NCBI GenBank assembly: GCA_963765585.1
Contig: CAVXXB010000008.1
Span: forward strand, 271,532 to 335,531
DNA from: Calditrichia bacterium
Lineage (GTDB): Bacteria > Calditrichota > Calditrichia > JAJRVZ01
Length of the DNA stretch: 64,000 nt
Direction of reading: 5' to 3'
The notes below the pieces were generated by a model. It did not search any database. It had not been told where the DNA came from and was given only the letters and a program-made list of their open reading frames with translations. The translations under genes were made by a program, and so were the position numbers. Below, in pieces: positions 29,057 through 50,087 of the stretch; within the stretch, counting starts at the first letter, position 1; every line of letters starts with the position of its first letter.

Positions 29057-29158
29057 AATTTTTCTTTCATAAATTCTGTTGTTTGTTGATTGCTATTTAT
29101 TGAACATAGATGACACGGAATACGCGGATTACCGTGGATAAAAATTGTTTTCGTCAGC

Positions 29159-29281
29159 AAGTATTAAATGCCATCCGGTCATGCTGAATCCTGACCTGTC
29201 GTCAGGACAGGTTTATTTCAGCATCTTAAATTTAAAGATCCTGAACCAAGTTCAGGATGACGAGAGTATTATCCTGTTATC
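29159..29281. repeat. Right arm of the inverted repeat flanking the PL6 gene, carrying a 23-bp nested hairpin insertion
   Basis: About 90 percent identity by eye to the reverse complement of the left arm. Extra TCCTGACCTGTCGTCAGGACAGG inside the ATGCTGAA...TTCAGCAT hairpin. Confidence 0.75.
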
Positions 29282-29299
29282 TTTTCAAAAAATATAATA

Positions 29300-29665
29300 T
29301 TATTTTATTAAAATCATTTTTCGCGTCTTTACTGACCCTGAATTTGTCATAAGTGAATATATATATACGCCGCTTGCCATATTGCCGGCATCCCAATTAA
29401 CCATATATGCGCCAGCAGGCTGGCTTTCATTCACCAAAGTTACAACTTTTTGTCCTAGTGTATTGAATATACTTAACTCCACATCACTGACAGCCGATAG
29501 CCGATAGCCAATAGCCGTTACCGGATTAAACGGATTGGGATAATTCTGATGCAACACACTGGTAACTGGTAACACCTCTGTGCCCTTTGACATGACTGAA
29601 ACAGCCGGGCCGAGGCGGTCTTCCAACTGGGCAATATAGAGTGACCGTGGTTCCAGGCCGGGCAT
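29300..29665 (-). CDS. C-terminal part (linker + T9SS CTD) of the split beta-helix protein
   Basis: NYPNPFNPVTAIGYRL...KMILIK. This frame read upstream gives AQNYAIGCIGNITGQRPPAPFPDDDGYIEGSN, continuing the 502-aa ORF. Confidence 0.75.
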   Translation of the reverse strand: MPGLEPRSLYIAQLEDRLGPAVSVMSKGTEVLPVTSVLHQNYPNPFNPVTAIGYRLSAVSDVELSIFNTLGQKVVTLVNESQPAGAYMVNWDAGNMASGVYIYSLMTNSGSVKTRKMILIK

Positions 29666-29690
29666 ATTTGATCCTTCTATATATCCATCA

Positions 29691-31199
29691 TCATCTGGAA
29701 ATGGTGCCGGGGGGCGTTGACCGGTGATATTTCCTATACATCCGATCGCATAATTCTGAGCATGTCGGGGGTTGCTGGACGATTAGGTCACCATTGTTCA
29801 TATCACATGCCCATGCAACTGAATGAGCGATTGACCAACCATGACTGGTGCCGTAAAATCCGCGGTTATATAAGCCCAGCATACGCGGATTAAGACCAGG
29901 TCGCGGGCCATCCAATTCGACCAGGTTGTCATAGAGAATTCCCATGGTCCATCTGCGATGCCCTTCGCTGCTGGTATAGGCACCTGAGGATGTACAATCC
30001 ACAAATACACAACCGGATACCCAGCTCGTTCCATTTGAAACATAATGATGCCGTCCGTTTGTTGCATGACAATTTTTAAAAAGAATTTGCTGTGATGCGG
30101 TATACAATTGAAAATTGTATCTGAGCCCTCCCTCAACGGCAGAAACCGGATCCAGAGCATTACAATTTTCAACAGTAACCCGGGTTGCGGTATTGGTCCT
30201 GATGCCCGATAATCCAAAATGCAGCATGGTACAATCACGAACCCAGGCATCTTCTATCTGATAAAGATCAATAGCATTCCAGGCATGATTCGGATCACTA
30301 CCACCTAAGGTCTGAATATCGATGCGTAAATTTTCGATACCGATCTGTGTTTTTATATTGAAACGGGTATATTTGTAAATATAGGATTGAGACAATGCCC
30401 TTATTAGATGATTATAAATCGGGGCTCCGACGGTAATTTTATTACCATCTATTTCTTTGATAAACCGGTTAAAAACCAGCGGTTGTGATCCTTCCGACCA
30501 GGGCACATCAACACCCGGTTCCGCGCCGGTTGAGTCAGAATAGGTACCGCCATAATCAATTGCCTCAAGCCACTCTTTGGTGCAGGGGTGGACAACAATA
30601 ATATTATCACCTACCTGGTAATTTGCGGCGTTTTCCACCTCAAATGTTCTATCCCCGACTAACACAGTATCAGAAATAATATTTACCACTGACCCTGATT
30701 CCCCATCTGCCCATTTGGTTGTTCCGCCACCACCCGCCACAATCACCGTTCTTTGTACAGGATTATTGCCAGTTGCCTTTAGAATCGTATTCTGCAATGG
30801 ATCACTTCCATCACCCACACCACGAAGTACCACACCATTAAAACCAAACTTTATGGTTCCCTGTATTTCATACTCACCGGCTTTTAAAAGCAATGCCCCA
30901 CGTATACCGTTGCTATCAGCGGGCATCAGCGCGATCTGAAATAAGGCATTTTGAATATGAGCGGTATTATCCCCCTCGATGGGTTCGATTTCACTAACAA
31001 CCGGTACATTGGGAATTGGTTCTTCGCCGTTTTTATATCCGGCATAACTAAAATCCGGTATACGGTTTTTATTTTCGTCCTGTTCATAAACCAGGTTATT
31101 TTGATCATCATAATATACAATATTTGATTGCCAGGGGGTTTGGGATAAAAGCATTGATGGCAAAAGGACAATTAAAACAAATATTGATATTTTATTCAC
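29691..31199 (-). CDS. Secreted right-handed beta-helix (pectate-lyase-fold) protein, frameshift-split near 29762
   Basis: Signal peptide. DFSYAGYKNGEEPIP...GDNTAHIQNAL...LLLKAGEYEIQGTI...GVVLRGVG. The last ~25 codons look out of frame. Confidence 0.7.
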   Translation of the reverse strand: MNKISIFVLIVLLPSMLLSQTPWQSNIVYYDDQNNLVYEQDENKNRIPDFSYAGYKNGEEPIPNVPVVSEIEPIEGDNTAHIQNALFQIALMPADSNGIRGALLLKAGEYEIQGTIKFGFNGVVLRGVGDGSDPLQNTILKATGNNPVQRTVIVAGGGGTTKWADGESGSVVNIISDTVLVGDRTFEVENAANYQVGDNIIVVHPCTKEWLEAIDYGGTYSDSTGAEPGVDVPWSEGSQPLVFNRFIKEIDGNKITVGAPIYNHLIRALSQSYIYKYTRFNIKTQIGIENLRIDIQTLGGSDPNHAWNAIDLYQIEDAWVRDCTMLHFGLSGIRTNTATRVTVENCNALDPVSAVEGGLRYNFQLYTASQQILFKNCHATNGRHHYVSNGTSWVSGCVFVDCTSSGAYTSSEGHRRWTMGILYDNLVELDGPRPGLNPRMLGLYNRGFYGTSHGWSIAHSVAWACDMNNGDLIVQQPPTCSELCDRMYRKYHRSTPPGTISR

Positions 31200-31228
31200 G
31201 GAATATTCCTTAACCTTTTCTCTCCTTA

Positions 31229-31253
31229 TACCCCAAGATTAATCTTGGGGTAA
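31229..31253. repeat. Same palindrome family, copy 2
   Basis: TACCCCAAGATTAATCTTGGGGTAA. Confidence 0.8.
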
Positions 31254-31295
31254 GCAAAATATAAGATATATTGTAAATAATGATATTATACGATT

Positions 31296-31321
31296 TTACC
31301 CCAGGATTAATCCTTGGGTAA
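31296..31321. repeat. Same palindrome family, copy 3 (one stem mismatch)
   Basis: TTACCCCAGGATTAATCCTTGGGTAA. Confidence 0.75.
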
Positions 31322-31473
31322 TCAAAAAAACTACTTAACACAATTTAAATATTACTTATCACTTTTAATGTGATTTATTTAACTTTAAAACAGGAATTTT
31401 CAAAAAAATAGCCGGGCAATAACATTCTACCCGGCTGAGAATATTTCTGGTATAATCATATCCGGTTTTTTTT

Positions 31474-31626
31474 GACAGGATAACAGGATAATTAATTAGA
31501 GATTAGAAATTAGTGATGAGAGATTAAGTGAAACTCTCTCTTCATGCCGAATTTATTTCAGCATCTCTAAACCAAGGATCCTGAATCAAGTTCAGGATGA
31601 CGATGATTTTATCCTGTTATCCCGTC
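31474..31626. mobile_element. MITE-like 153-bp element with GACAGGATAACAGGATAA / TTATCCTGTTATCCCGTC termini
   Basis: 18-bp terminal inverted repeats. The right half is homologous to the right arm at 29159-29281. Confidence 0.4.
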
Positions 31627-31638
31627 TAATTATCTTTT

Positions 31639-33093
31639 TTACCGGATGAGCATCATTTTCTTTACAACCGAAAGATTGTCCATTGTCAGTCTGTAAAAAT
31701 AGACGCCGGAGGCCTGTACGGCTGGATTCCAGCTGACCTGGTAAGAACCTGCTGCTTGCCGTGTCTCAACCAGGGTATCAATAGTTTTGCCGGTAATATC
31801 ATACACGATAAGTGTTACATTTCCCGGTTGGGTTAATGAATAGGAAATGGTTGTTGACGGGTTAAACGGATTTGGATAATTCTGAGCCAGATCAAACATC
31901 CCCGGTACACTTTCATTGACAAATTCATCAACGGAGTTGGCTAAATCAGCCCAACGAAGATCACCCAGAGCCACACCGGAAAAAGCTTTGCCATATGCCG
32001 GAGAAGTTGGGGCCAGGGTATAATCAAAATTAGCGGCATCATTATAGAGAGGATCAAATGCATAAATAGTCGTCGTATCGACTTCCCCCCCTTTGGTTGC
32101 GCTCACTCTTCCGGAGGAAGGTTCAGGTACAGCAAAAATCATATTCAGCGTATCTAAATGACTTACAGTGGATCCTTCACCCTGAACCTGGACAACATAA
32201 TCCGCACGTTCGGCACGGGATAATTTCGGTAAACGGGAATTTGTCACCAGATTATCACGAAAGATGGTATTTTCGTTATTTTTAATATATGCCATTCTGG
32301 TACCACAATTATCTACTGTCAGATGCTCAAGCAAGACATAGGCGTCCTCGGTTGAAGTGTCTACATCAGCATAAACACGAATACACTCAGAAGAGATGTT
32401 ACGGAAAGAACAATTTCGAACAATCAGAGAATCCATCGCCCGGGTTGTTTCATATTTTTCGGTTTCTGCTATTCTTATCGCCTCATCACCAATATCCCGG
32501 AAGGTACAGTTTTCAAATCTGACAGTTCCTGCTTTAAGTGTCGGTTCCCCGGTGTTTGGTCTTAGAAAGTAAAGTGCATGACCTTCGGCCTCTTCTGCCG
32601 AGTTTCCATCTTCATAAAAGTTTTTAAAATCGCAATTTTTTACGATAATATTCAGACCCTCTTTGGCAAAGGACCGGGGAATTTGACTCTCTGCACCGTG
32701 GCCCAGACGTATACCATGCTTGAGACCATGGCCCTGAGGGTGCCCACCGTCAATAATAATTCCCTCAAGCGTGATATCGTCATACACGCGCATTAATTCG
32801 ATCTGTTTTTCACCTTCCTCTCCCCACTGATCACTGTGGGTAAGTATGGGTTTTTCTGCCAGACCAGCTTTGGCAATAATAACAATCGGTTTCTTTATCT
32901 CAAAGTAGACAGAATCCGTAGTAGTATACACACCGCCACTCTCGGATAATATGATGGTATCAATTCCAGCTGTAAACGCATAATCCAACGCAACTTTAAA
33001 GTCAAATTGGGTATCAACTTCAATATTGCTGGCACTTGTCATGCCCAAATGACAAGCTAGTAACAAAGTTAAAAATATGGTAACAAAACGCAT
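31639..33093 (-). CDS. Secreted beta-helix-like protein of unassigned family with a T9SS CTD; paralogue of the C-terminal module of 45797..48919
   Basis: AGLAEKPIL, IIDGGH, DEAIRIAETEKY, LIVRNCSFRNISSECIRVY, VLLEHLTVDNC. NYPNPFNPSTTISY...MMLIR. Confidence 0.7.
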   Translation of the reverse strand: MRFVTIFLTLLLACHLGMTSASNIEVDTQFDFKVALDYAFTAGIDTIILSESGGVYTTTDSVYFEIKKPIVIIAKAGLAEKPILTHSDQWGEEGEKQIELMRVYDDITLEGIIIDGGHPQGHGLKHGIRLGHGAESQIPRSFAKEGLNIIVKNCDFKNFYEDGNSAEEAEGHALYFLRPNTGEPTLKAGTVRFENCTFRDIGDEAIRIAETEKYETTRAMDSLIVRNCSFRNISSECIRVYADVDTSTEDAYVLLEHLTVDNCGTRMAYIKNNENTIFRDNLVTNSRLPKLSRAERADYVVQVQGEGSTVSHLDTLNMIFAVPEPSSGRVSATKGGEVDTTTIYAFDPLYNDAANFDYTLAPTSPAYGKAFSGVALGDLRWADLANSVDEFVNESVPGMFDLAQNYPNPFNPSTTISYSLTQPGNVTLIVYDITGKTIDTLVETRQAAGSYQVSWNPAVQASGVYFYRLTMDNLSVVKKMMLIR

Positions 33094-33324: not shown

Positions 33325-34818
33325 TTACAAACTAAAACTATACGCCGCCGACCAGGCGTTCATACTTTCAGTCACATAATTGGTATTACTGAAGTATGAA
33401 TCATAATATCTGAGACGGCGATACTCATAGGCGATATCGATTCGGCCAAACTTATCTAAAAACACACTCGCCCCAAAGGTATATCCTTTAGCGGAAGGAC
33501 CTCTGTCTTTTATTGCCGCACCATCGGGAACAAAGGTTGCCGGAATGTCGCGATACCCTGCCATGAGCGATAAATAGTCAGCAACACGAAATTCAGCACC
33601 AAATTTTAATATACTCTGATCTACCTGTTCGCGCGCGGTATCATTCTCCCAGCTGTAATTATACTTGGTTTTGCTATAGGGTGTAGATTGATAATCCAGA
33701 GCAAATGTAAACCAATCTATTGGAGTTATACGCACACCAAATGAAAAAGTCCCCGGAATTTCAACTTCATCTTTGCCGCTGATGCTGGCAGTATTTGTAC
33801 CGGCAGTATCAGAAAATGTATCTGTATAGTTCCAATCACGGGTCATAGTATATGGTAATTTATAATTAAGCGCAAAACTGATCCGCTCAAATTTATATAT
33901 TACGCCAAGATCAAACTGCAATGCGTTGAAATCAGAGGTTCCAGCCGAATAGGCATCCACTGTATCATAGGTAAACCGAAACACATTATTTGCTTCAATC
34001 TCAAAGGTGCCCACTCTTTCCAGTGCCTGATAATCGTTGCTGCTGCCTGTCATGGAAGAAACACCTACTCCGAGTTTAAGATTGTCATTAAGTTCATAGG
34101 CCAGGGCACCCGCAATTGAGGTCATATCCCCACTGCGATCTCTTGTAAAACGCGACCAGGAGAAGGTATCCACTCCGGTAACCACCCTTGGCATAATACC
34201 ATATGCATCGAATCCAATATGAGGATCGAGATAGGTTATATTTCGATCGTAATCTAAAATTCTATTGTAACGATAAGCGGCACTAATTACAAACTTTTGC
34301 TCAGCGATTGAGAATGGATATGCCAGAACAACATTATTCAGACCAATTTTATCCAGTTGTTTTTGCCAGTCAGCAGCTTCCTCGCTGTATGGCTCGAGAC
34401 CCAATGGTGGTTCGGCGACCACATAGTTCGTATCCTCGGCCACTATTTCGTAATCATTCAAACCATTATTTGCCGGATCCGGTATATACAATCCTTCCAA
34501 ATAAAAAGCCATGGTCCAGTATATCCGGTTTGGCCGGTAATCCTGATTTTCCCGCCAAATCTGACTGTGACTATTGCCGGAGATTGAAAATGTAAAACTT
34601 TCTATATCGCTGAGGCCTGCAGAATTGTAAAAGATAGATGCTGCATCGCCGGTACTGGCCAAATATGCGCCGCCCATAGCCATGGCTCTTACTCCGGGTT
34701 CGGTTTGGTGGAAGAATCCCTGAAATGAGAGGTTATCTCCCCTGTGCTGCGCAGTGATAAGGGCCGGCAGGAAGACCAGAGTAAGTAGGATAACCAATTT
34801 TATATTCATATTTTTCAT
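33325..34818 (-). CDS. FadL/PorV-superfamily outer-membrane beta-barrel protein
   Basis: Signal peptide. GVRAMAMGGAYLASTGDAASIFYNSAGL N-terminal hatch motif, alternating beta-strand pattern, aromatic C-terminus. Confidence 0.6.
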   Translation of the reverse strand: MKNMNIKLVILLTLVFLPALITAQHRGDNLSFQGFFHQTEPGVRAMAMGGAYLASTGDAASIFYNSAGLSDIESFTFSISGNSHSQIWRENQDYRPNRIYWTMAFYLEGLYIPDPANNGLNDYEIVAEDTNYVVAEPPLGLEPYSEEAADWQKQLDKIGLNNVVLAYPFSIAEQKFVISAAYRYNRILDYDRNITYLDPHIGFDAYGIMPRVVTGVDTFSWSRFTRDRSGDMTSIAGALAYELNDNLKLGVGVSSMTGSSNDYQALERVGTFEIEANNVFRFTYDTVDAYSAGTSDFNALQFDLGVIYKFERISFALNYKLPYTMTRDWNYTDTFSDTAGTNTASISGKDEVEIPGTFSFGVRITPIDWFTFALDYQSTPYSKTKYNYSWENDTAREQVDQSILKFGAEFRVADYLSLMAGYRDIPATFVPDGAAIKDRGPSAKGYTFGASVFLDKFGRIDIAYEYRRLRYYDSYFSNTNYVTESMNAWSAAYSFSL

Positions 34819-34839
34819 GAAAAAATGCTCCTTATACTA

Positions 34840-35880
34840 TCAGTCATTCATGGCAAAGCCAAGTGAAAAACGATGTACAGAATCCAGATAATCTCCAAAA
34901 TCACTATAGGAATAATCCACCCGGATATTACTGTAGGCAAGTCCGAAACCCAGAGAGAATGATTCCGAATCATAGTTTATTTTATATCCACCACGCAGGA
35001 AAAGAATATTTTGAAATCCATATTCAAGTCCAATATTATATTGCTGATCAAAATCCCGCGGTTGAACCATATCAAAGGCAAGTAATAAGGTCTGACTCTC
35101 CGAATCCATAATCAGGCTCTCATTTCCCGATATCAAATAGGTTGCAATTCCGATATTAAGAGTCTGCGGCAATGGATACTGTTTCCCGGTATAAGTTTGT
35201 GTATATGATGTATCATTCTCAGCGTCATACCGCGTAATAATCTGTTCATCAATGTATCTCACATCCGGGCCAAAATTTCGAACCGTCGCTGCAATCTTTA
35301 TGGATCTGAATCCCGTATCATAGATCAGTCCGGCATCAAACATGATATTTCCGGTAGATTTTACACCAAGATCCTCCCGGGCATATTTTACGCTCAAGCC
35401 AAAGGAGAATTTTTCAGTTAACTGTTTGGCAAAAGACAGACCGAATACCTGCGCACCTGGTGTCAGAACTTCACCGGTATAACCAAGATATTTATCACCA
35501 ACAAAACCCAGAGCATCTACACTTGTCACACGTATCTCACCCACATCGGTCATCATTCCCTGAAAACCAAAGGTACCAAGACCGGGCACCGTATATGCCG
35601 CTGAAAGGGACAGATGTGTGATGTCCAGGAACCAATCAAGATAATCTGCAGCCACATCAATATTTTTAACATACACGAGACCGGCAGGGTTAAAATACAC
35701 TGCCTGTGAATTCATTGCAGTAGCAGACGCGGCCTCCCCCATGGCGGTATAACGGGCACTTGTCATCACCTTTAAAAATTGAAATGAGGTGGTACCAACT
35801 TTTTCAAAAGCATTTCCATTGGAAACACATAATGTCAAAGTCAACAGGATAAAAATGTAATATTTGTTATGTTTTTTCAT
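34840..35880 (-). CDS. PorV/PorQ-like outer-membrane beta-barrel protein
   Basis: Start set at MKKHNKYY (GAGGA 8 nt upstream). SFQFLKVMTSARYTAMGEAASATAMNSQAVYFNPAGL matches the PorV/PorQ family head. Confidence 0.62.
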   Translation of the reverse strand: MKKHNKYYIFILLTLTLCVSNGNAFEKVGTTSFQFLKVMTSARYTAMGEAASATAMNSQAVYFNPAGLVYVKNIDVAADYLDWFLDITHLSLSAAYTVPGLGTFGFQGMMTDVGEIRVTSVDALGFVGDKYLGYTGEVLTPGAQVFGLSFAKQLTEKFSFGLSVKYAREDLGVKSTGNIMFDAGLIYDTGFRSIKIAATVRNFGPDVRYIDEQIITRYDAENDTSYTQTYTGKQYPLPQTLNIGIATYLISGNESLIMDSESQTLLLAFDMVQPRDFDQQYNIGLEYGFQNILFLRGGYKINYDSESFSLGFGLAYSNIRVDYSYSDFGDYLDSVHRFSLGFAMND

Positions 35881-35902
35881 AATATTCCTCATTAACTCAA
35901 CA

Positions 35903-38188
35903 TTATTTAATAACAATAAATTTTCCGGATGCCTGTTCGCCATTCGGGGTGGTAATTACGTATAAATAAATACCTGAGGCAACCTGCTGATCATTCCGGG
36001 TCACCTGAAACCAGGCTGTTGAATAAACCGGATCATCATGCTCAATTGTTTCAACCAGTTGTCCGGAATAGGTAAAAATTCTTATGGTTGCGCGTGCTGG
36101 CAAACCGTAAAACCCAATCCGTTCTTCCGCTCCGACAGCGCCGCCAAATCCGGATTGTATCACAAACGGATTTGGCACCACAAAAACCTCATCCAGATTT
36201 GCGACAGACCCAATATTTTTTTCATGACGACTGATATTTGTTCTGCCGCTAGGTAATCCATTCTCATCTATCGATTGCACTGAGTAATATCTTGATTCTC
36301 CAATCTTAAAGGCCACATCATCATCAAAATATTCATACTGATTATCACTATTTATGTAGGCTGGATCTCCGGCGGAAATTGAATCAATCACTGTCCATGG
36401 CCCCATACCGGCATCAGAGCGGCTGATATAAAATTTAGTTAATGTACCACTTAATTGAGAAATGGGATACTTCGCTGCAAAAGTTTCAACAAACTCCTCA
36501 ACAGATCTGCCCCAATTTATCTTTATCTGCCCATCAGGTGTATTAAGCACAGTTATCACCGGCGCCGGTACTCTTACTTCTATGTTATACACGCCGTCGG
36601 GTGGATTATCTTCCGGCCAGACAGGAATTGCAGGTGCTTCACCCAAATAGGCTTCAAATGCCTTATGTGCAACCTGAGTAACCGTCCGCACCTCAGAATT
36701 AACATAATCGGGGTAACCGAATTCTGTCAGGTAGCGGTCTGTTAAATTTCCAGATCCATCTCGTGCCGGTACCGGGCGATCCCATGAAGGTGTTGCGGCC
36801 CATTGAACCAATGTCTGACCACCTTCGATTACTTTGCCAGGCTGGGCGCCATATCCGACAACTTCGGCAAATGAATATTCAAGACGGTCACCAATGTTCA
36901 GCGTATATGGTCCAAAAACGATATGCTTTTGTGCCGCATCGGCACTTTGACGATAGGGATAGGCAGCGCGGCCAATCCAGTCTTTATCTGCATCAGGATG
37001 GGTGGGCGGTGCCGGCCATGTAGTGGAGCCAAGCGAATAGACGCCACTCCAGCGTTTATTTGTATTGATAGCTTCGACCTGCATCTTGCTACTGCGCGTA
37101 TTACCGGTACTTACTTTATTTGAATATGGTTGTTTTACGTGATTTTTTTCATCCAATTCATAAAATTTTGGATATTCAGGAAAAGTTGATTGGGTGCGAA
37201 GCGTACCAACAAATTCAGATTCATTTTGTTCTGATTCGATTGTGTCGACGAAAGCAAGATGATTTACATCATAATACAAGACCGCATAACCGGGAGCCTG
37301 TGGACTAGCTAACCCACCGCCATTCTTACCGGTGGCCGCAAATTCCAGAAACAGATCCTTATTCGGTTCCGGCTTGGCAAACAAAGTCGCGTCACTTATG
37401 TTGGTTCTCAGACTCATATTAAATGACAACCAGTAATCGGCATCCCAAAAATTATTCTGATCGCCGCGATACAGACCTGAATCATATTTCCATTCCTGAT
37501 AGTTACGCTGATATCCGTACATGGATGGACCAAACCCCCAAATAAACAGCGCCATAAAATCTCTTAACTCTTCGGTCTGATCTGGAATACCATCGCCGTT
37601 TGTATCTCCGGTATATTCCAATTCATACTCATAGATAATCATATCATCATAGTCCGGGTGACTCCAGGCTCTGGTGGTGCGTTTTACATTCACGCCAACC
37701 GGTGTGGCCCATTCGGCAATGATAATCTCCTCGGCCTCATTGGGATCATAATTTTCATTCATAGTTCCATCCGGTAATAAGGGGAAATTTTCAATCTCGA
37801 TCAGAGAAATAGGAAAAGTCCACCGCCCAATAATTGTTTCTGATCCAGAGCCGGTGCCGACAGCGCCGCACATGGCGTAAATCCTGCTTTCCATTCCCGG
37901 CTGACCCTTCAGATTGGCAGCCATATACATACCACCGCCTAAAAGATTGTGCTGGCCGCTATAGGTAATTCCATTTAATATTGTGGCGGACCGGGAAGGC
38001 CATTCCATCAGGGGAACGCTTGTTTTGTTTCCTTCATCGCCGGTTGTCCAGGGCCGTCCAATATCTCCGGAATTATACAGAGTATTATGCAGCATTCCCC
38101 GGTCATGTATTCTGTACTCCAGCTGGGCCTGTAGCGCGGAAATTGCAAGGACAAGAATTAGAATAACTATTAAAGATATCTTATTCAT
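35903..38188 (-). CDS. 761-aa secreted protein: ~480-aa domain of unknown function + FN3-like domain + divergent T9SS-type CTD
   Basis: Signal peptide. FN3-like PAPVITVLNTPDGQIKINWG...YYSVQSID. C-terminus VVPNPF...ATIRIFTYSGQLVETI...SGIYLYVI...KFIVIK. Paralogue at 57618..59790. Confidence 0.6.
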   Translation of the reverse strand: MNKISLIVILILVLAISALQAQLEYRIHDRGMLHNTLYNSGDIGRPWTTGDEGNKTSVPLMEWPSRSATILNGITYSGQHNLLGGGMYMAANLKGQPGMESRIYAMCGAVGTGSGSETIIGRWTFPISLIEIENFPLLPDGTMNENYDPNEAEEIIIAEWATPVGVNVKRTTRAWSHPDYDDMIIYEYELEYTGDTNGDGIPDQTEELRDFMALFIWGFGPSMYGYQRNYQEWKYDSGLYRGDQNNFWDADYWLSFNMSLRTNISDATLFAKPEPNKDLFLEFAATGKNGGGLASPQAPGYAVLYYDVNHLAFVDTIESEQNESEFVGTLRTQSTFPEYPKFYELDEKNHVKQPYSNKVSTGNTRSSKMQVEAINTNKRWSGVYSLGSTTWPAPPTHPDADKDWIGRAAYPYRQSADAAQKHIVFGPYTLNIGDRLEYSFAEVVGYGAQPGKVIEGGQTLVQWAATPSWDRPVPARDGSGNLTDRYLTEFGYPDYVNSEVRTVTQVAHKAFEAYLGEAPAIPVWPEDNPPDGVYNIEVRVPAPVITVLNTPDGQIKINWGRSVEEFVETFAAKYPISQLSGTLTKFYISRSDAGMGPWTVIDSISAGDPAYINSDNQYEYFDDDVAFKIGESRYYSVQSIDENGLPSGRTNISRHEKNIGSVANLDEVFVVPNPFVIQSGFGGAVGAEERIGFYGLPARATIRIFTYSGQLVETIEHDDPVYSTAWFQVTRNDQQVASGIYLYVITTPNGEQASGKFIVIK

Positions 38189-38203
38189 ATTAAGACCATC
38201 CTG

Positions 38204-41050
38204 TTAAAATTTTAATATCAATCCAACACGCCAGTGTCTCGGCTCATTGCGTAACAGATACACATCCTGGCGCCGCAGATAAGGTGCATATTCATCGTCT
38301 GTCAGGATATCTGATTGATTTGGCAAGGTTTCCCAACGAACAATATTTCGGTCATTATTAAACGTGCGTGAATATTGCCACCAGTATTCGTTCAGTAAAT
38401 TAAATCCCTCAACATAGGCTGTAACGCGCGAAGCGCCAATCCCAAAGGATTTTTCAATGCGTAAACGCCAGTCGTTTTCCACGGGAGAGCGCTGATTATA
38501 TTTAAGACCTTGACCGGAGATATCCCAGGTATAGGGGCGTCCGGACACATACCGGTAGGTGGTGCTGAATGACATATCTGAAAAAGGTTTAATTCCAAAA
38601 ATCTCCACGCCGCTATTTGGCATGGTGACATATCGAAGATTAAAGACCGCTTTGTGAGTCCGGTCATAATCAAGAAAGACATCTTCCGGAAACCGTTCGC
38701 TCTGTCCTTCGATCAGCAAATCACCGGATTCGCTATATATCGGGGCCACATCCAGATTGTCTGAATTACCGCTTTTACCTGTAGCAGATTCATAATTATA
38801 TCTGATATACCCGCGAATATTACCAGAAGTTTTTTCCAGACTAAAATGAAATCCCTTGATATCCGCATAGTCAAGATTAACGAAAGTGGAATATGCTTCC
38901 CCGCCATTATTGACAAAAAATGCCGTTTGAATCAAATCCTTCACATCTTTGTAATATGCACTGACATCCATCTGAAGGCCGCTGGCGAGGCGATGCACAA
39001 TACCCACATCATAGGTCTTTGTATTTTCCGGCTTAAGTAAAGGATTCCCCAGCTCAAGCACGCGAGTAACACCCTGATCAATATTTACATTATTAAAATA
39101 TAACTGACTAAAGGCTGGGCGTTGTGTAAACGTGCCATAATTCAGGTGAAATACTGTAAGGGTGGAAACCGGAAAGGATAATCCGATACGCGGTTGCAGG
39201 CGGGTAAATATTTCAGTTTCTGCAGTTGCTTCAGGATCAAGTAGTGGATTGAACGGATCTTTATAATATTTAGTATTCAATTGATAAAAATCATATCGCA
39301 ATCCCACATTGGCAATCATGCCTTCAAATTCCATTTTGTCCTGAACAAATACGGCACCTTCCCAGGGAAAGGCACCAAAGTTTTGGAATTCTACTGCTCC
39401 CGGGTTTGTAACGTTTTCTTCAATATCAACCCGCATATCATAGTAATAAAATTGTACACCGGCTTTAAAAAGATTATACCGGTCGACCTGCCCGGTAAAA
39501 TTTCCGGCAAAATAGTACGTATTGGTCCAGAGATCGCCACGATCATCATTTAACCGTCCAACTCTATGATTTGAAGGTGCGGTATAATCAACCCAGTTTC
39601 TGCCATTGGTATAATCTTCCAGTAATTGTCCGTCGTTGAGCAGATCGATGCGTTCCGCCTCATTTACGCGCATATAACTTATATTAAAATCAGAAAAATA
39701 GGATGGAGAAAATGCATGCTGATACTCAAGACCGGCCTGGTATGTAGTACTTGTTCTTTTTGAGATACTAAACGTTCGGTCAAACATCCACCGTTCCCAA
39801 TTTGATTCAATCAGGTTAAAAAACGAATAATCATAAATATAGGAAAGTTTGAATTTATTGTCCGGGTTAGGAGAATAGGTGAAATTTCCCATTAACTGTA
39901 TATCATTGTCCGGATCGGTTGTGGGTACCATGGCATGTTGGACATTCTGCCGCAAGGCCACAAACATACCAACATCTTTGGTCAACGGTCCACCTGTGGT
40001 TAGGTCAAGCCGGTAATCTACTGTATTATCAAATTCCATCCCCAAATCACGGGCACTCTGCAGCCAAAAATTACGGCCAAATTCTGCAATTCTGAGGGAA
40101 TCTTCATGATTCGCCGGTGGCCATTTTAACGGAATATATTTATTGACACCATAGCCATTATCCCAGAGCGGTTTACCCGGCTGCTGGGGATTCTCCTTGA
40201 GCCATTCTTCCGGATCTAACAATAATTCTGAAAATACAAGATTTTGCTGGCTGTAAGGACTTCCCTGCCATGATTTATAATATGGTAATACGCCGGCAAT
40301 TTCAAAACGTGTTTGCCAGACAGGCGAGGCTTCCCTGGTAACCATATTAACTACTCCAGACTGTGCATTACCGTATTCGGCACTGAACCCGCTGGTATAG
40401 ACTTCAACCTGTTCCAAACCGGTTACAATAGGGCTGAAGGCACGCTGATTATTGAGCGGATTAACGATGTTTGCTCCGCCTAGCAGATATGACGCTTCAC
40501 CAACACGACCACCACGAAAGTGATCATCCACCACATCGGCCTGAAGTTCCAGAATATCCCCGATATCCTGCACACCGGCAATACTCTGTACTTCGGAAAT
40601 ATTGTAGACCTGCTTGGTTGCCGTTACATCTTTTTCCACAGTCTCCTGTGTATACGCGGTTACAACAATTTCTTCTGTTTCGAGCAATTGCTCAGATAAT
40701 TCATAATCCAGCCGGGTTGTTTTATCCACATCGACACGTACACGGGTTCGTATTTCATCAAGGTAACCGACGTAGGTTGCGCGCACCGTATATTCTCCAG
40801 GCCGCAAATTGATTATGAAATAACTGCCGTCAAGATCGGTTGATGCACCGGTTGGTGTATCCAATGGTATTTCTTTTGAATTTTCCCAGCGGGCTTCAAC
40901 CAGGATATTTGCTCCAACCAAAGGATCTTTTGTATTTTTATCATAAATGGTGCCGGCCAGTTTACCCGTATTACCGGCATAGAGGTTGGAAATATTTATA
41001 AAAATACATGCTAGAAGTAATAACCACACAGAGTAAATATGAATCTTCAT
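38204..41050 (-). CDS. TonB-dependent receptor with N-terminal carboxypeptidase-regulatory-like domain (SusC-like architecture)
   Basis: GKLAGTIYDKNTKDPLVGANILVE, plug region EEIVVTAY...GGRVGEASYLLGG, long beta-barrel, terminal ...GLILKF. Confidence 0.9.
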   Translation of the reverse strand: MKIHIYSVWLLLLACIFINISNLYAGNTGKLAGTIYDKNTKDPLVGANILVEARWENSKEIPLDTPTGASTDLDGSYFIINLRPGEYTVRATYVGYLDEIRTRVRVDVDKTTRLDYELSEQLLETEEIVVTAYTQETVEKDVTATKQVYNISEVQSIAGVQDIGDILELQADVVDDHFRGGRVGEASYLLGGANIVNPLNNQRAFSPIVTGLEQVEVYTSGFSAEYGNAQSGVVNMVTREASPVWQTRFEIAGVLPYYKSWQGSPYSQQNLVFSELLLDPEEWLKENPQQPGKPLWDNGYGVNKYIPLKWPPANHEDSLRIAEFGRNFWLQSARDLGMEFDNTVDYRLDLTTGGPLTKDVGMFVALRQNVQHAMVPTTDPDNDIQLMGNFTYSPNPDNKFKLSYIYDYSFFNLIESNWERWMFDRTFSISKRTSTTYQAGLEYQHAFSPSYFSDFNISYMRVNEAERIDLLNDGQLLEDYTNGRNWVDYTAPSNHRVGRLNDDRGDLWTNTYYFAGNFTGQVDRYNLFKAGVQFYYYDMRVDIEENVTNPGAVEFQNFGAFPWEGAVFVQDKMEFEGMIANVGLRYDFYQLNTKYYKDPFNPLLDPEATAETEIFTRLQPRIGLSFPVSTLTVFHLNYGTFTQRPAFSQLYFNNVNIDQGVTRVLELGNPLLKPENTKTYDVGIVHRLASGLQMDVSAYYKDVKDLIQTAFFVNNGGEAYSTFVNLDYADIKGFHFSLEKTSGNIRGYIRYNYESATGKSGNSDNLDVAPIYSESGDLLIEGQSERFPEDVFLDYDRTHKAVFNLRYVTMPNSGVEIFGIKPFSDMSFSTTYRYVSGRPYTWDISGQGLKYNQRSPVENDWRLRIEKSFGIGASRVTAYVEGFNLLNEYWWQYSRTFNNDRNIVRWETLPNQSDILTDDEYAPYLRRQDVYLLRNEPRHWRVGLILKF

Positions 41051-41093: not shown

Positions 41094-41113
41094 ATTTGTA
41101 ATATGTATTACAA
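41094..41113. promoter_or_regulatory. Near-perfect palindrome TTTGTAATA-TG-TATTACAAA between the -10 element and the RBS; candidate operator
   Basis: 9-bp arms verified base by base. A 14-15 nt half-motif recurs at the GntR promoter. Confidence 0.35.
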
Positions 41114-41116
41114 ATA

Positions 41117-41145
41117 AAAATAACTATTTCTATTTTGATTGTCAA
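41117..41145 (-). promoter_or_regulatory. Sigma70-like promoter candidate for the first TonB-receptor operon
   Basis: On the minus strand: TTGACA, a 17-nt spacer, then TATTTT, about 65 nt upstream of the ATG at 41050. Confidence 0.4.
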
Positions 41146-41156: not shown

Positions 41157-43424
41157 TCATAAACGCATTGTTATTTTTGTACCGGGAGATAAGATATTTA
41201 ATTGCTTCTCCCCTACCAATTTATGTTTTGAATATTCCAGAATTTTTGTCTTTCTTCTACCTAAAAAAGTAACTTCAGCTAATTCATTATCAAGGTCGAG
41301 TATAAAAGTTGCCGGTGCCTCCATCTTAAATGAAATACCATGCTGGGAGAAATAACTACAGTTTACCAGGATATTTCTATTAAAATTTGTCATAATTACA
41401 GTCGCATCGGTTTTCAAATTTGGTATTTCTTTTTGAATCTGCCACTTGCTCAAATCCAGACACCCAATGAATGTATTTTTTGCATTTTTCTGCTCTACGG
41501 AGATTGGTTTTACCATCGTGATAAAATTGAAATCTCCATTTTTTTCTACTGAGGATACTGAATAATGCTTGTCTCTCATAACGCTGGATTCAATTTTATA
41601 GTCTGTTTCTACAAATTGTTTTATACGGAGCGCAGCATCTTTTCCATATTTTTTTTCGAGCAGTGAATCAGAAGAAATATTATAATCACCCTGCCAGACC
41701 TGCTGGTAAGTATGTTCACCCTCTGCCTCGAAATAATCATTGACCAGCCAGAATGCTTCGTGTAAAAATATTACCTCGCGAAAATAGGATACATTTATTG
41801 AATCAAAGCCATTGTGCGTTCCCATAAAATAATCAAAATTATTCTCTTTAATCCATGAAATTACTGTAGGTTCGGGCAAATATTTCCATTTTCCAAATCC
41901 GGATTTACCGCTATTGGCAGTCCAGCCTCTTCCCAATGGGATGTTATCAACCAATGCCACATTTTTCGCCCATGAATTCTTCCAGAAATGATAATCCGAA
42001 TCTTTATATTTTACCTGATAGTTTGGTAAAATTTCATGGTTGTTTGCATAAGCAACGACACCCAGCATATCCCCATGCTGATGATCCGGTTTTCGGTCAG
42101 AAAGTCCGGCAGTAATAGTCATATACATACTCTTTTTTGCCCAACCATCACGCATGATATAATAACCGGTTTGCGCTAGTTCCGTAGAGCCTATTTGCGG
42201 TGATTTTCCGGCAATATCATCCAATTTTGACAATTGGCTATCTCGCAAAAACCAGTACACGGATCCCGGCACTTTATTTGTTGAAAAATATCTGAATATG
42301 GAATCTTCAAAAACAATGGCGCCAATAGTCAGCGCATCATCCATCTGGTTATTTTCTGCAAAAGGTTTATCAGTATCATCCTGCAGAACAGGAAGTTTCT
42401 TATTTGGCTGCGCCAGCTTTACCAGGGATCCAAACATCATTTTGAATTGTCGTACAAAGCTTTCAGGTAAATCAATATTATTTATCTTTGCCAGTTGATA
42501 GACCCTAAAATAATTTTCAATATCTCCTTTATGATAATGAACAGAACGTTCAAACTGGAATCCATCTTTATTGATCTCGTTTTCTATATGCCAGGTTAAC
42601 CCACGGATGGCCTGATCCTGCCAATCTTTGCTGTCTTCAAATTCAGGAAACAACGCAGCAATCTCGAATAGGGCCACCAGGCCTTTTGTATGGTGATTTC
42701 CGTATCTATTCTTTTTTGTGCGTTCAAATAGTTGAGCTCCGTGATGCAGAAACGTCCGGATCAATAAAATCTGTTTTTCATCATTGTAAGCAGGATCACT
42801 CAGATATGCATTATGATTAAATAACCAATTGTGGATTCGTCGTCCTGCCCTGTAAACCTCATACACCCCATTGCCAGCATCATCATAGGATCCATCTGCA
42901 AATGCACGGTTCAAATCAGCCGCCTGCCTGACGAAATAGTTCATATTTTCCGGTTCATCGCCTGAAAAATACATCAATGTCATATCTCTTGACTTTTGTT
43001 GCCGGGCGAGATGACGCAGTTCATAAGCGGTTACGTATTGGTCTTTTAGATTTTTGAACGGTAATTCCCAGGAAGTTTCAGGCGGATAAGTAGATTTTTG
43101 ATATTCTGACCTGGATTGATGCTTTTTCATGGCCTCGGGGAAAGTTTTCTGGTAATATTTAAACCTTTGGTTAAAATTTATCCAGTTGAAGTAATATCGA
43201 TCTGAAATTTTTTCTTTGAGGTGGTTCGATAATTTAATTATTGCTTCAGATTCTTGGCCGAGTTCAACTGAGGTTCTGATTTCGGCTAAATCCGGATTGT
43301 CTGTATCCAGGCAATTTAACAGCTCATTCTCAGTTAGAATTCTGTCAAATGGGATATTATTACCGCCACAGGCAATATTATAGAATAATAAAAAATAGAT
43401 AATGATTGTGAAGTTATTTATCAT
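41157..43424 (-). CDS. Heparinase II/III-family polysaccharide lyase (PL12/PL15/PL17-like), lipoprotein
   Basis: Lipobox FYNIAC. GNHHTKGLVALFEIAALFPEF, DGFQFERSVHYH, C-terminal beta-sandwich. Confidence 0.72.
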   Translation of the reverse strand: MINNFTIIIYFLLFYNIACGGNNIPFDRILTENELLNCLDTDNPDLAEIRTSVELGQESEAIIKLSNHLKEKISDRYYFNWINFNQRFKYYQKTFPEAMKKHQSRSEYQKSTYPPETSWELPFKNLKDQYVTAYELRHLARQQKSRDMTLMYFSGDEPENMNYFVRQAADLNRAFADGSYDDAGNGVYEVYRAGRRIHNWLFNHNAYLSDPAYNDEKQILLIRTFLHHGAQLFERTKKNRYGNHHTKGLVALFEIAALFPEFEDSKDWQDQAIRGLTWHIENEINKDGFQFERSVHYHKGDIENYFRVYQLAKINNIDLPESFVRQFKMMFGSLVKLAQPNKKLPVLQDDTDKPFAENNQMDDALTIGAIVFEDSIFRYFSTNKVPGSVYWFLRDSQLSKLDDIAGKSPQIGSTELAQTGYYIMRDGWAKKSMYMTITAGLSDRKPDHQHGDMLGVVAYANNHEILPNYQVKYKDSDYHFWKNSWAKNVALVDNIPLGRGWTANSGKSGFGKWKYLPEPTVISWIKENNFDYFMGTHNGFDSINVSYFREVIFLHEAFWLVNDYFEAEGEHTYQQVWQGDYNISSDSLLEKKYGKDAALRIKQFVETDYKIESSVMRDKHYSVSSVEKNGDFNFITMVKPISVEQKNAKNTFIGCLDLSKWQIQKEIPNLKTDATVIMTNFNRNILVNCSYFSQHGISFKMEAPATFILDLDNELAEVTFLGRRKTKILEYSKHKLVGEKQLNILSPGTKITMRL

Positions 43425-43526
43425 ACGATTATGGACTTTTCAGGACATTTAATAACTAATATATATCCTAGGTTATAAAAATTAATAGACATTGCTGCTA
43501 TAGCTGCATTGTCACATTATTTTGTT

Positions 43527-43552
43527 TTACCCCAAGATTAATCTTGGGGTAA
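43527..43552. repeat. Same palindrome family, copy 5
   Basis: TTACCCCAAGATTAATCTTGGGGTAA. Confidence 0.8.
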
Positions 43553-43642
43553 GAAAAGGACCTACATCTTACAACACCACCGTTATCGACTATATTTAAA
43601 TATTTCGATTATCAGAATCTTTAAACAGCCATAAATTATTAC

Positions 43643-44671
43643 TTATCTTTGCACTCTTCCGGACGTATCCCCGCCAGCCACGCCAAGCACCTCAGATTCA
43701 GTCACCAGGTTCATATCACCGGGAATGGTTTGCTTCATTCCCGAGGCCGCAACTGCGTATTCCAGACTCTTTTGCTTATCCCAGCCTTGTACCAGGCCGT
43801 GTATTAATCCCGCACCGAAGGAATCTCCTCCGCCAACCCGATCTACCAGGTGTATTTTATATTTTTTACTTTGATAAAATTCATCGCCATCATATAACAT
43901 TGCCGACCACCCATTATCTGACGCAGAAATGCTTTCTCTAAGGGTAATAGCCACCATCTTCGCAGCGCTTATATCCATGACTTGCCTGGCAACTGACTTA
44001 TAGTGATCTTCGGATAATTTCCCACTGGTTACATCCGTTGAACTCGCTTCAATACCAAAAACATCAGCCGCATCTTCTTCATTGGCAATTATTACATCCA
44101 CATATTGAACCAATTCCGACATGGTTTGCTTGGCTTCGTCTCTGGTCCACAATTTTTTACGATAATTCAGATCGCAACTCACCATAACATTATGTTTTTT
44201 TGCTGCCTTTACGGCTTCCAGGCTTACACTGGCACAGGATTTGGATAATGCCGGTGTAATTCCGGTGATATGAAACCAGTTTACCCCAGAAAAAATCTCA
44301 TCCCACTTAAACATGCCAGGTTCAATTTGCGAAACAGATGATCCTGCTCTATCATAGGTCACTTTTGAGGGACGGATTGACGCACCATGTTCAAGGAAAT
44401 AGATTCCAACCCGATCACCACCCCGATCTATATATTTTGTATTAACGCCAAATTTGCGAAGTGCATTAAGCGCGGCTTGTCCTACCGGGTTTTCCGGTAA
44501 CCGTGTCACAAATGCCACATCATGGCCAAAATGTGCCAGTGAGACAGCCACATTGGCCTCTCCCCCGCCATACGTGGCCTGAAACTTCTCCGCCTGTGAG
44601 ATTCGCTCATAATTATACGGTGCCAGACGGAGCATGATTTCACCGAAAGTTACTATTTTCTTTTGTGTCAT
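43643..44671 (-). CDS. kdgK: 2-dehydro-3-deoxygluconokinase (PfkB family)
   Basis: VTFGEIMLRL, GGGEANVAVSLA, VDRVGGGDSFGAGLIHG. Confidence 0.88.
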   Translation of the reverse strand: MTQKKIVTFGEIMLRLAPYNYERISQAEKFQATYGGGEANVAVSLAHFGHDVAFVTRLPENPVGQAALNALRKFGVNTKYIDRGGDRVGIYFLEHGASIRPSKVTYDRAGSSVSQIEPGMFKWDEIFSGVNWFHITGITPALSKSCASVSLEAVKAAKKHNVMVSCDLNYRKKLWTRDEAKQTMSELVQYVDVIIANEEDAADVFGIEASSTDVTSGKLSEDHYKSVARQVMDISAAKMVAITLRESISASDNGWSAMLYDGDEFYQSKKYKIHLVDRVGGGDSFGAGLIHGLVQGWDKQKSLEYAVAASGMKQTIPGDMNLVTESEVLGVAGGDTSGRVQR

Positions 44672-44687
44672 CTATTCCTCAAGTTAT

Positions 44688-44780
44688 AATTAGAGATTAG
44701 AGATGAGGGATGAGAAATGAAATAAATTCAAGATATGGTTTCAATTTAATTCCTAATTCCTAATCTCTAATTTCTAATCG
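44688..44780. repeat. Inverted arms of TAGAGATTAGAGAT / ATCTCTAATTTCTAA words between kdgK and eda
   Basis: The same word family occurs at 31494-31530 and 54460-54494. Confidence 0.6.
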
Positions 44781-44883
44781 CTTCTTATTACGGCAATGCG
44801 TCTTGGCGAGAGATATCTTCAGATGCACTGCTGTGAATCTCTTCACCCATACCACACACAAGACGCATGGCAATGCGTCTCTC

Positions 44884-45528
44884 CTACTCCCGCCCTTTTT
44901 TTATTTCCGCGACAAAACGGGCGGCCCTGTCTGCAAGGCCATCCCAATCACCATCGGCAATCATTTTTTTATTCAGCAATGCGGTTCCCACGCCAAGACA
45001 ATACGCACCGGCCTTGATAAATTCCGCCGCGTTTTCCAGGGATACACCGCCGGTCGGTGTCATACGAATATCGGGAAGCGGTCCATGAATATCTTTAAAA
45101 AATCCGGGACCCAGCGCCGTTGCCGGAAAGATTTTTACTACATCGGCACCCAGGTTCCAGGCAGATAATATTTCTGTTGGTGAGAATGCACCCGGAATAC
45201 AAACTTTGTCGTATTTGTGACTCATGGAGATAACATCCGGATTAAGAATTGGGCTGACCACAAACTGCGCCCCGGCATTGATAACTTTTTCAGCAGTTTC
45301 ACCATCAAGCACTGTTCCGGCACCGATTAAAAAATTATCATCCAGTTTCTCGGAAAGATCCTTAATAATACCGATGGCATTTGGTGTGGTCATGGTAATT
45401 TCAAGCGCTTTAATACCGCCCTTTTCCAGGGAAGAAATTATATTTTGTAATTTTTCTGCATCACTCAGGCGAATCACGGCAACAATACCGGAATCCGCAA
45501 TAGATTTTAATATCTCAGATCTGGTCAT
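44884..45528 (-). CDS. eda: KDPG / 4-hydroxy-2-oxoglutarate aldolase
   Basis: GIKALEITMTTPNA, GAGTVL, VKIFPA, PTGGV. Confidence 0.88.
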   Translation of the reverse strand: MTRSEILKSIADSGIVAVIRLSDAEKLQNIISSLEKGGIKALEITMTTPNAIGIIKDLSEKLDDNFLIGAGTVLDGETAEKVINAGAQFVVSPILNPDVISMSHKYDKVCIPGAFSPTEILSAWNLGADVVKIFPATALGPGFFKDIHGPLPDIRMTPTGGVSLENAAEFIKAGAYCLGVGTALLNKKMIADGDWDGLADRAARFVAEIKKGRE

Positions 45529-45581
45529 AATAATTATTTCTTATAATTTTTGTCTATTGATCCAATGAATATAATAAATTA

Positions 45582-45692
45582 GACATGATAACAGGATTTA
45601 CATGTGATAATTCTTCTAAAATATTAATATGAGTTATTTATCACATAAATATTCTAATAACTCAAAATTATAAATTATCCTGTTATCCTGTC
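45582..45692. mobile_element. MITE-like 111-bp element with the same terminal inverted repeats
   Basis: GACATGATAACAGGAT ... TTATCCTGTTATCCTGTC, with an internal ATGTGATAA/TTATCACAT inverted repeat. Confidence 0.4.
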
Positions 45693-45720
45693 TGAAAAAT
45701 TGATTTAATAGGTTAATATA

Positions 45721-45753
45721 TACCCATCCCCGGGATAAACCCGGGAATGGGTA
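45721..45753 (-). terminator. Stem-loop 44 nt downstream of the stop of the multi-module gene
   Basis: TACCCATCCCCGGG-ATAAA-CCCGGGAATGGGTA, 13 of 14 bp pair. An A/T-rich tract follows on the transcript strand, but there is no clean U-run. Confidence 0.35.
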
Positions 45754-45796
45754 GGTGTAAACGAATTACCAGTTACGAATAACTAATAACAAGTAC

Positions 45797-50085: not shown

Positions 50086-50087
50086 AT

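Follow-up and report, generated by a model that had tools for sequence, protein, structure and literature searches.

A candidate SusD-less glycan uptake module with a T9SS-type partner protein and a PorV-family barrel in an alginate locus of a Calditrichota bacterium

The DNA analysed here, a 64-kb stretch of contig CAVXXB010000008.1 from a Calditrichia bacterium (the window, to which all positions refer unless a related locus is named), contains at positions 33325-41050 a cassette of four genes that combines a TonB-dependent receptor (TBDR) with a secreted protein and two outer membrane barrels. A check of the open reading frames (ORFs) in the window verified all four on the minus strand. The first gene (38204..41050) encodes the TBDR, a protein of 948 aa with a CarboxypepD_reg N-domain, the TonB-box-like motif EEIVVTAYT after that domain, a plug and a 22-strand-type barrel. 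The second (35903..38188) encodes a secreted protein of 761 aa, here called P761, which has a signal peptide, a β-rich N-domain, an FN3-like domain and a PorZ-like type IX secretion system (T9SS) C-terminal domain (CTD). The third (34840..35880) encodes an outer membrane barrel of the PorV/PorQ family; its ORF of 367 aa reaches 35943, but the protein probably begins with MKKHNKYY, encoded from 35880. The fourth (33325..34818) encodes a FadL/OMPP1-family barrel of 497 aa (PF03349). With the barrel gene starting at 35880, the intergenic gaps are 15, 22 and 21 nt, which confirmed the four closely packed, co-directional genes described by the first-pass annotation of this DNA, both in coordinates and in strand.

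The gene order was compared in a scan with one genome per species, which returned 141 relatives. Eighty loci were kept (family 1), from Calditrichota, Ignavibacteriota/Melioribacteraceae, KSB1 and Fidelibacterota (Neomarinimicrobiota), and the four window proteins were used as tblastn queries. The order of TBDR, P761, PorV-like barrel and FadL-like barrel was kept in 72 of the 80 loci, and seven of the remaining eight were cut by contig ends or N gaps. Since the order recurs in so many genome loci, the four-gene arrangement is far beyond chance. The first-pass annotation had held that its idea would fail if the first three genes, hereafter the triad, were not conserved in related genomes; their order is kept across at least four phyla and also in divergent paralogous families. 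One locus, L050, was rejected as an exception to the synteny, since the gene is flanked by N gaps to its left and right in the scaffold. A real exception was found in L074 (9965-14256 of that locus), where a P761-like N-domain and an FN3 domain are followed by a different and longer C-terminus in an ORF that runs off the contig. This protein has no T9SS CTD and its gene has no adjoining receptor or PorV-like gene; the same metagenome-assembled genome carries a normal cassette (L046). An alternative arrangement was seen beside a normal cassette in L035 (1751-5950, minus strand), with a PorV-like barrel gene (361 aa) before a TBDR gene (1026 aa), and there the gene after the TBDR is cut by the locus end.

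The four proteins are conserved to different degrees in these loci, with median identities of 50.5% for the TBDR, 57.1% for P761, 49.0% for the PorV-like barrel and 44.4% for the FadL-like barrel. In 56 of the 58 complete loci P761 shows the highest conservation, as would suit a subunit that contacts several proteins. Hundreds of full-length homologues of P761 exist, with 54-86% identity among the matches listed; the annotation of those listed is either hypothetical or 'T9SS sorting domain' protein, and just 1 of the 120 listed came with a Pfam domain already computed (PF13585). The surroundings of the cassette are conserved as well. Homologues of β-helix proteins occur in 61 loci, and one to four of them follow the cassette in most; the other recurrent flanking genes encode Hepar_II_III proteins, KdgK, Eda, a cupin, MFS or TRAP transporters, SDR, GH88 and a SASA esterase. 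These conserved flanks suggest that the family-1 loci are orthologous polyuronate loci, most likely for alginate.

P761 has a Sec signal peptide and, on inspection of its sequence, no lipobox. No Pfam family was matched above its cut-off, and the Pfam/NCBIfam matches that were obtained are confined to the CTD, the last ~100 residues. AlphaFold2 gave a pLDDT of 49 with only 14 orthologues, and a model from 111 sequences (pLDDT 91.7, pTM 0.90) was used instead. It predicts three domains, a β-rich domain at residues ~25-535, an FN3-like domain at ~540-657 and the CTD as a C-terminal β-sandwich at ~661-761. Profiles and model thus agree with the layout proposed in the first-pass annotation, in which an N-terminal domain that could not be placed is followed by an FN3-like domain and a divergent T9SS CTD. 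The P761 profile matched none of the PDB sequences, and a Foldseek search of the PDB with the N-domain found no fold-level neighbour, the best TM score being 0.24. The matches of the N-domain to GH94, GH116 and ExoMA2 (TM 0.2-0.24, 8-9% identity) were rejected as generic β-sandwich similarity. It had been considered that P761 might fall into a well-characterised family with another role; Pfam, NCBIfam, the PDB sequences and Foldseek all gave no family for the N-domain. Of the residues that are invariant across the wider P761 family, most are Gly, Pro or aromatic.

CTDs of the T9SS guide proteins through the outer membrane, and PorV binds CTDs. The CTD of P761 just passes the type A model TIGR04183 (23.6 bits, cut-off 23). 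It stays below the cut-offs of PF18962 Por_Secre_tail (13.6 bits, cut-off 27; sub-threshold in 9 of 14 orthologues) and PF13585 CHU_C (18 bits, cut-off 27; sub-threshold in 13 of 14), and no match to the type B model TIGR04131 was found in P761. Among the profiles, the PorZ model fits it best, its C-terminal part scoring 30.4 bits over the last ~95 residues of P761. Consistent with this, Foldseek matched the C-terminal part of the predicted structure to FN3 arrays, PorZ (5m11; 22% identity over 129 columns) and PorU (6za2). Identification of P761 as PorZ itself was rejected: the full-length equivalog has a cut-off of 260 bits and consists of two β-propellers and a CTD, and the CTD alone is PorZ-like. 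As judged from these profiles, the CTD of P761 resembles that of PorZ and is a borderline case of type A; it does not belong to type B.

The third gene product scored twice the cut-off of the PorV/PorQ family model NF033709 (180.8 bits, cut-off 90), which bears out its earlier description as PorV/PorQ-like. It scored far lower against the equivalog models of PorV (NF033710, 63.5 bits, cut-off 250) and PorQ (NF033711, 71.2 bits, cut-off 220), and its only PDB sequence match is F. johnsoniae PorV (6h3i_F, E 1.2e-4). A second barrel of the same family (56578-57603; 161.5 bits against NF033709) belongs to a second triad in the window, and it too stays far below both equivalog cut-offs. The possibility that the barrel is the single general PorV of the organism was raised by the first-pass annotation. 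PorV and PorQ proper are general proteins with one copy per genome that act with SprA/Sov, and either identity was rejected here: the equivalog scores are far too low, and the 64 kb covered by the copy count hold two 32%-identical copies, each preceded by a receptor gene and a P761-like gene of its own. Neither barrel of the cassette matched the PorP/SprF family in NCBIfam or Pfam at E≤0.1. The fourth gene product was confirmed as a FadL-like barrel by PF03349 (FadL/Toluene_X; 42.2 bits, cut-off 29.7), as had been noticed before. It scored 55.2 bits against the BamG model NF053685 (cut-off 250) and 47 bits against the PorV family model (cut-off 90), and had no match among PDB sequences.

These assignments change the precedent that should be used. 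The cassette had been likened to SprB-SprF, where a protein with a type B CTD is encoded beside an outer membrane barrel and SprF is needed for the anchorage of SprB. The neighbouring positions of the two genes are similar, but the analogy did not hold up, as neither a type B CTD nor a PorP/SprF barrel is present in the cassette. PorZ-PorQ or PorU-PorV appears to be the better precedent. In P. gingivalis these are surface proteins with a retained CTD held by a barrel of the PorV/PorQ family; it is PorZ and PorU whose CTDs are known to stay uncleaved, and the PorQ barrel anchors PorZ (PMC10947112). The barrel of the cassette passes the model of that family, and the CTD of P761 is closest to that of PorZ by both profile and Foldseek, although its retention is an inference. 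In contrast to the P. gingivalis pairs, of which neither the barrel nor P761 is an orthologue, the triad genes adjoin a nutrient receptor, occur in several copies per genome and would serve nutrient uptake instead of cargo attachment. FadL-family barrels of Bacteroidota are also known as platforms for surface proteins, with BamG-BamH and PorV as the cases described (PMC12578637). The fourth gene product shares with BamG, a 14-strand platform, its barrel family and a sub-threshold profile match; it differs in the distance from the BamG cut-off and in the lack of a BamA context, and BamH is a lipoprotein.

The receptor was clearly recognised by the TonB_dep_Rec barrel model PF00593 (98 bits, cut-off 27) and by CarbopepD_reg_2 (52 bits). 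The Plug domain scored 14 bits, below its cut-off; it scored 39.5 bits in the receptor of the second triad and is clear in relatives. Hence, by its domains, the receptor belongs to the TonB-dependent receptors in general. No match to the SusC/RagA model TIGR04056, whose family cut-off is 368 bits, was found at E≤0.1, and the receptor of the second triad reached 59 bits with its N-terminal 220 residues only. No PDB sequence was matched at 1e-4. The label SusC/RagA was therefore rejected, and of the "SusC architecture" assigned previously, the CarboxypepD_reg domain, plug and barrel remain as common parts while membership in SusC/RagA does not.

In the window, none of the ORFs of at least 400 aa matched a SusD family of Pfam, which agrees with the earlier remark that nothing SusD-like is present in the 64 kb. 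A canonical susD next to the receptor was also considered, and every family-1 locus that shows the gene following the receptor has a P761 homologue there. SusD was absent from the recurrent flank clusters that were scanned in the related loci, flank singletons lying outside that scan. Nor is P761 a SusD/RagB protein: it has no SusD family match, its predicted model is β-rich and it has no lipobox. In the strict Bacteroidota definition, a polysaccharide-utilisation locus (PUL) contains an adjacent susC-susD pair, and by that definition the cassette is not one.

The likeness to SusC/SusD (RagA/RagB) systems lies in organisation. In both, a TBDR with a CarboxypepD_reg-like N-domain is encoded next to a large protein, which is surface-exposed in the case of SusD, and a substrate-specific locus of carbohydrate-active enzymes (CAZymes) surrounds the pair, as it does in the marine Flavobacteriia alginate system. 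That system also shares the GntR regulator, PL6/PL17-type lyases, KdgF-like cupin, SDR, KdgK and Eda, and in both cases several divergent paralogous copies track different glycans. The differences concern the proteins themselves. The receptor falls outside the SusC/RagA model, P761 is a β-rich protein with FN3 domain and T9SS CTD whereas SusD is a TPR lipoprotein, and a PorV-family barrel is an obligatory third gene. P761 is also more conserved than its receptor, whereas SusD is usually the less conserved of the SusC/SusD pair. M. roseus also carries a true SusCDE operon (Melioribacter genome paper). By this comparison the triad looks like a functional counterpart of SusC/SusD, holding the position that the pair has in PULs. 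The SusD-less loci of Proteobacteria, such as the alginate/xylan CUT (carbohydrate utilisation with TBDR) loci of Alteromonas and Xanthomonas, resemble it in having a TBDR in a CAZyme locus without SusD; they are not known to have a PorV-like barrel or a partner protein that is obligatory, nor to export their enzymes by T9SS.

A second, paralogous triad is located 15 kb upstream in the same locus (56578-63079, minus strand), followed by the GntR/FCD gene. Its receptor (59816..63079, 1087 aa) contains CarboxypepD_reg and Plug domains and is 24% identical to the first receptor (E 1e-63), and its PorV/PorQ-family barrel (56578..57603, 341 aa) is 32% identical to the first barrel (E 6e-48). The P761 paralogue between them (57618..59790) is split into ORFs of 331 aa and 429 aa in different frames, of which the C-terminal one is 27% identical to residues 380-761 of P761 (E 2e-27). 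The split is located at 58795-58907, with a T run at ~58850, and a one-base change in GATGATTTTTTAC would fuse both ORFs. In all relatives that cover the junction except L100 the paralogue is a single in-frame gene of ~730 aa, and the split is either an assembly error or a pseudogene. Seventeen metagenome relatives of the second triad contained every triad gene that the contig reached, in the same order, with all three genes on 5 of the 17 contigs. Where their flanks are visible, these relatives lie in pectin loci with PL9, PL1, GH28, CE8 and GH88. The cultured Melioribacter sp. OK-6-Me has a corresponding series of GH43, TBDR, a 714-aa protein, a 337-aa barrel, GH88, GH28, pectate lyase and CE8.

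The P761 proteins of the two families are homologous over nearly their full length (hhalign probability 99.6, E 7e-25, 584 columns), and they belong to a much larger group. In an exhaustive search the P761 profile matched 5221 clusters (50% identity) at E≤1e-3, of which 1459 reached E≤1e-10 and 80 reached E≤1e-30. The best 150 matches include 88 full-length proteins, and 83 of these have both the N-domain and the C-terminal module. Fusion variants were also observed, namely P0133 (1262 aa), with ~540 additional N-terminal residues, and P0154 (1033 aa), with ~330 additional C-terminal residues. Eight distant members were inspected in their gene context. The triad order was seen in seven of them, and in L081, the eighth, the contig ends within the ORF that takes the position of the barrel. 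In those seven triads the receptor is a CarboxypepD_reg-type TBDR, but an unannotated receptor-sized ORF takes its place in two cases, and the barrels are 313-333 aa long, six of them with a PorV Pfam match. The contexts include GH63/GH2, a LacI regulator, DUF4185 with CTD proteins, GWxTD/DUF6785, or no visible CAZymes. In L082/L083 (6351-9728 of that locus) and L106, the triads are followed by, or located near, GWxTD-domain and DUF6785 proteins, not CAZymes, and thus not all triads need serve glycans. The FadL-like gene was absent from all examined non-alginate triads in which DNA downstream of the barrel is visible. Since it is confined to the alginate clade and the triad recurs across the families, the conserved unit is the TBDR, the P761-like protein and the PorV-like barrel; the FadL-like barrel, which had been counted as part of the module, keeps its family assignment and drops out of the general module.

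The genes on both sides of the cassette point to alginate. Downstream, a lyase block on the minus strand (25443..33093) encodes two β-helix proteins, one of them with a type A CTD, a PL6 chondroitinase-B-like lyase, an ORF with InlB repeats and a CTD, and a PF05426 alginate lyase. Upstream, a block of alginate catabolism on the same strand (41157..55203) encodes a Hepar_II_III lyase, KdgK, Eda, a cupin, an MFS transporter, a 1040-aa DUF4957/DUF5123 protein with a CTD, a PL17-like lyase and an SDR protein. By Pfam, the lyases of the window are PL6, PF05426 alginate lyase and two Hepar_II_III proteins, and canonical type A T9SS CTDs (36-44 bits) were found on several of the β-helix and DUF4957/DUF5123 proteins. 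Alginate utilisation loci are recognised by alginate lyases, KdgF, a DEH reductase of the SDR type, KdgK and Eda, together with a regulator and a receptor in the outer membrane. Judged by its gene content, with the lyases, a cupin, an SDR protein, a PfkB kinase, a KDPG aldolase, an MFS transporter and GntR/FCD all present, this is a textbook alginate utilisation locus. The earlier view of a lyase-rich polyuronate locus was therefore well founded, the full alginate gene set being recognised by Pfam.

Several details of these blocks were recorded. The PL6 ORF (423 aa, without CTD) overlaps the next ORF of 311 aa (26881-29056, junction at ~27785-27816). The latter has no signal peptide and contains the last β-helix turns, two InlB-type repeats and a type A CTD. 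The two look like one gene split by a frameshift, which may be an assembly error. A 264-aa ORF with DUF4957 alone (49064-49858) lies directly upstream of the gene for the 1040-aa protein (45797-48919), which consists of DUF4957, DUF5123, three InlB repeats, a β-helix and a CTD; the small ORF may be a truncated paralogue of it. At 33150-33185, within the 231 nt that separate the FadL-like gene from the lyase gene following it, there are a short tandem repeat of AACGAAT/TACGAAT with about four copies and two hairpins without a T-tail.

The first-pass annotation had also placed a promoter and a palindrome in front of the cassette, and both sites were found in the 106-nt gap 5' of the receptor gene. 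The sigma-70-like match TTGACA-17-TATTTT (41117..41145, minus strand) has the best score of the region (10/12). Promoter-like matches as a class are not enriched, with 28 observed and 24.3 expected from shuffles, and because of this the promoter call alone weighs little. Between the promoter-like site and the start codon lies a perfect 10+10 palindrome (41094..41115), ATTTGTAATA-CA-TATTACAAAT in the minus-strand reading. It contains GT-N3-AC, which makes it a candidate operator for the GntR/FCD transcription regulator of the locus (55338..56084, minus strand), of which 19 related loci encode a homologue immediately upstream of the cassette. A half-site related to the palindrome, with 3 mismatches, is present at 56101-56118, 17 nt upstream of the GntR/FCD gene. 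The palindrome and the half-site may thus be an operator and an autoregulation site.

Taking the locus and its relatives together, we propose with moderate confidence that the cassette encodes a SusD-less TBDR glycan importer, one of a widespread class, with P761 as a surface subunit that is delivered by T9SS and docked on a barrel. In this model, the lyases with T9SS CTDs encoded on either side of the cassette would cut the polymer outside the cell, and the TBDR would import the resulting oligouronates. P761 would pass the inner membrane by Sec and the outer membrane by T9SS. Its PorZ-like CTD would be retained and would dock on the cognate PorV/PorQ-family barrel encoded directly downstream, so that P761 would be held at the surface without a lipid anchor. 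The β-rich N-domain could then serve the receptor as a substrate-capturing or lid subunit, in the role of SusD (and SusE/F). The FadL-like barrel might be a second docking platform, for example for a downstream lyase with a CTD; no other step of the model is as weak. Uptake of oligosaccharides is the established function of TonB-dependent receptors in CAZyme loci, and import by the receptor is far more certain than the mechanism as a whole. Docking of P761 on a barrel would explain the invariant gene order and the presence of one barrel per P761-like gene. It would also explain the absent lipid anchor and the very high conservation of P761, as well as the diversification of whole triads by substrate.

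Several points weigh against this proposal. The surface location of P761, the retention of its CTD, its docking on the barrel, its contact with the receptor and its binding of a ligand are all inferred, and the role of the FadL-like barrel as a docking platform is a guess. With a borderline type A CTD, P761 could be cleaved and then attached to lipopolysaccharide or released. Across shared genomes the CTD identity is 62% for P761 and 43% for a cargo lyase, but the ratio of CTD identity to that of the protein's own body is ~1.0 for both alike and gives no discrimination. The invariant residues of the wider P761 family, as far as their types indicate, point to no binding or catalytic site. Finally, TBDRs of Proteobacteria import alginate oligomers without a partner, and a partner is not required in principle.

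One alternative is that P761 is a new surface or secreted enzyme, for example an endo-acting lyase or another processing enzyme, and that the barrel merely aids its export. Such an enzyme would suit a locus whose remaining members are CTD-bearing enzymes, and the strong conservation of P761 across phyla (median 57% identity), the many charged residues that are invariant in the alginate clade and the Foldseek similarity of the N-domain to GH94, GH116 and ExoMA2 at E ~1e-5 would be consistent with it. That similarity is below the level of a shared fold, however, and no catalytic constellation was found among the residues invariant in the wider family. In addition, the P761-like gene always directly follows the receptor, and the family occurs with receptors in alginate, pectin, GH63/GH2 and non-CAZyme contexts, which fits an accessory of transport better than a single activity. 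We consider an enzyme unlikely.

Equally unlikely, in our assessment, is that the PorV-like barrel is the T9SS shuttle of the locus for all CTD-bearing lyases, with P761 as one of its type A cargo proteins, cleaved by the sortase and attached to the surface. P761 does reach the type A threshold of TIGR04183, canonical type A CTDs are found on many genes of these loci, and PorV is known as a shuttle for type A cargo (PMC5562754, PMC10947112). The distribution of the barrel argues for a closer tie to P761. It adjoins the P761-like gene wherever the downstream gene is visible, including triads without a CTD-bearing enzyme in the visible flanks (L085/L086, L106), and there is one barrel per P761-like gene even where two triads share a locus. 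In L074, where the P761-like protein has no CTD, the barrel and the receptor are absent as well. A third reading, in which both barrels of the cassette act as passive or lateral-gate channels for degradation products or another small substrate, as FadL-family transporters do, and have no part in anchoring P761, is very improbable. The two barrels are members of the FadL/OMPP1 superfamily, which was founded on transporters, and the FadL-like gene tracks one substrate class, alginate, but uronate oligomers are hydrophilic and FadL channels carry hydrophobic compounds, the third gene product passes the PorV/PorQ family model, whose characterised members bind CTD proteins, and channels would leave the strict pairing with a CTD-bearing protein unexplained.

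With the barrel-docked P761 as the preferred reading, a wider proposal can be made more tentatively. In the members of the FCB (Fibrobacteres-Chlorobi-Bacteroidetes) group other than Bacteroidota, namely Calditrichota, Ignavibacteriota, KSB1 and Fidelibacterota/Marinimicrobia, a T9SS-exported, β-rich partner of a new fold family might serve the TBDR in a general alternative to SusCD, anchored without lipid by a retained PorZ-like CTD that would dock non-covalently on a dedicated PorV-family barrel. Full-text literature searches and the Melioribacter/Caldithrix genome papers gave no description of the triad, although one may exist elsewhere. We rate the TonB-dependent glycan locus as known, and the partner family P761 and the proposed use of PorV-family barrels as new.

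Since tools that predict PULs, PULDB among them, rely on the susC-susD pair, they would miss loci like this one. Glycan uptake is poorly annotated in Calditrichota, Ignavibacteriota, KSB1 and Marinimicrobia, which are abundant lineages of sediment and ocean, and the conserved triad provides a simple genomic marker for such loci. It also gives a defined functional setting to the large P761-like family, which has no Pfam domain and comprises 1459 clusters at E≤1e-10. The cultured Melioribacter with its pectin-type triad makes the idea directly testable. If it is true, T9SS would be a builder of nutrient uptake complexes in which PorV paralogues act as modular anchors, with substrate-specific families of the triad for alginate, pectin and other glycans.

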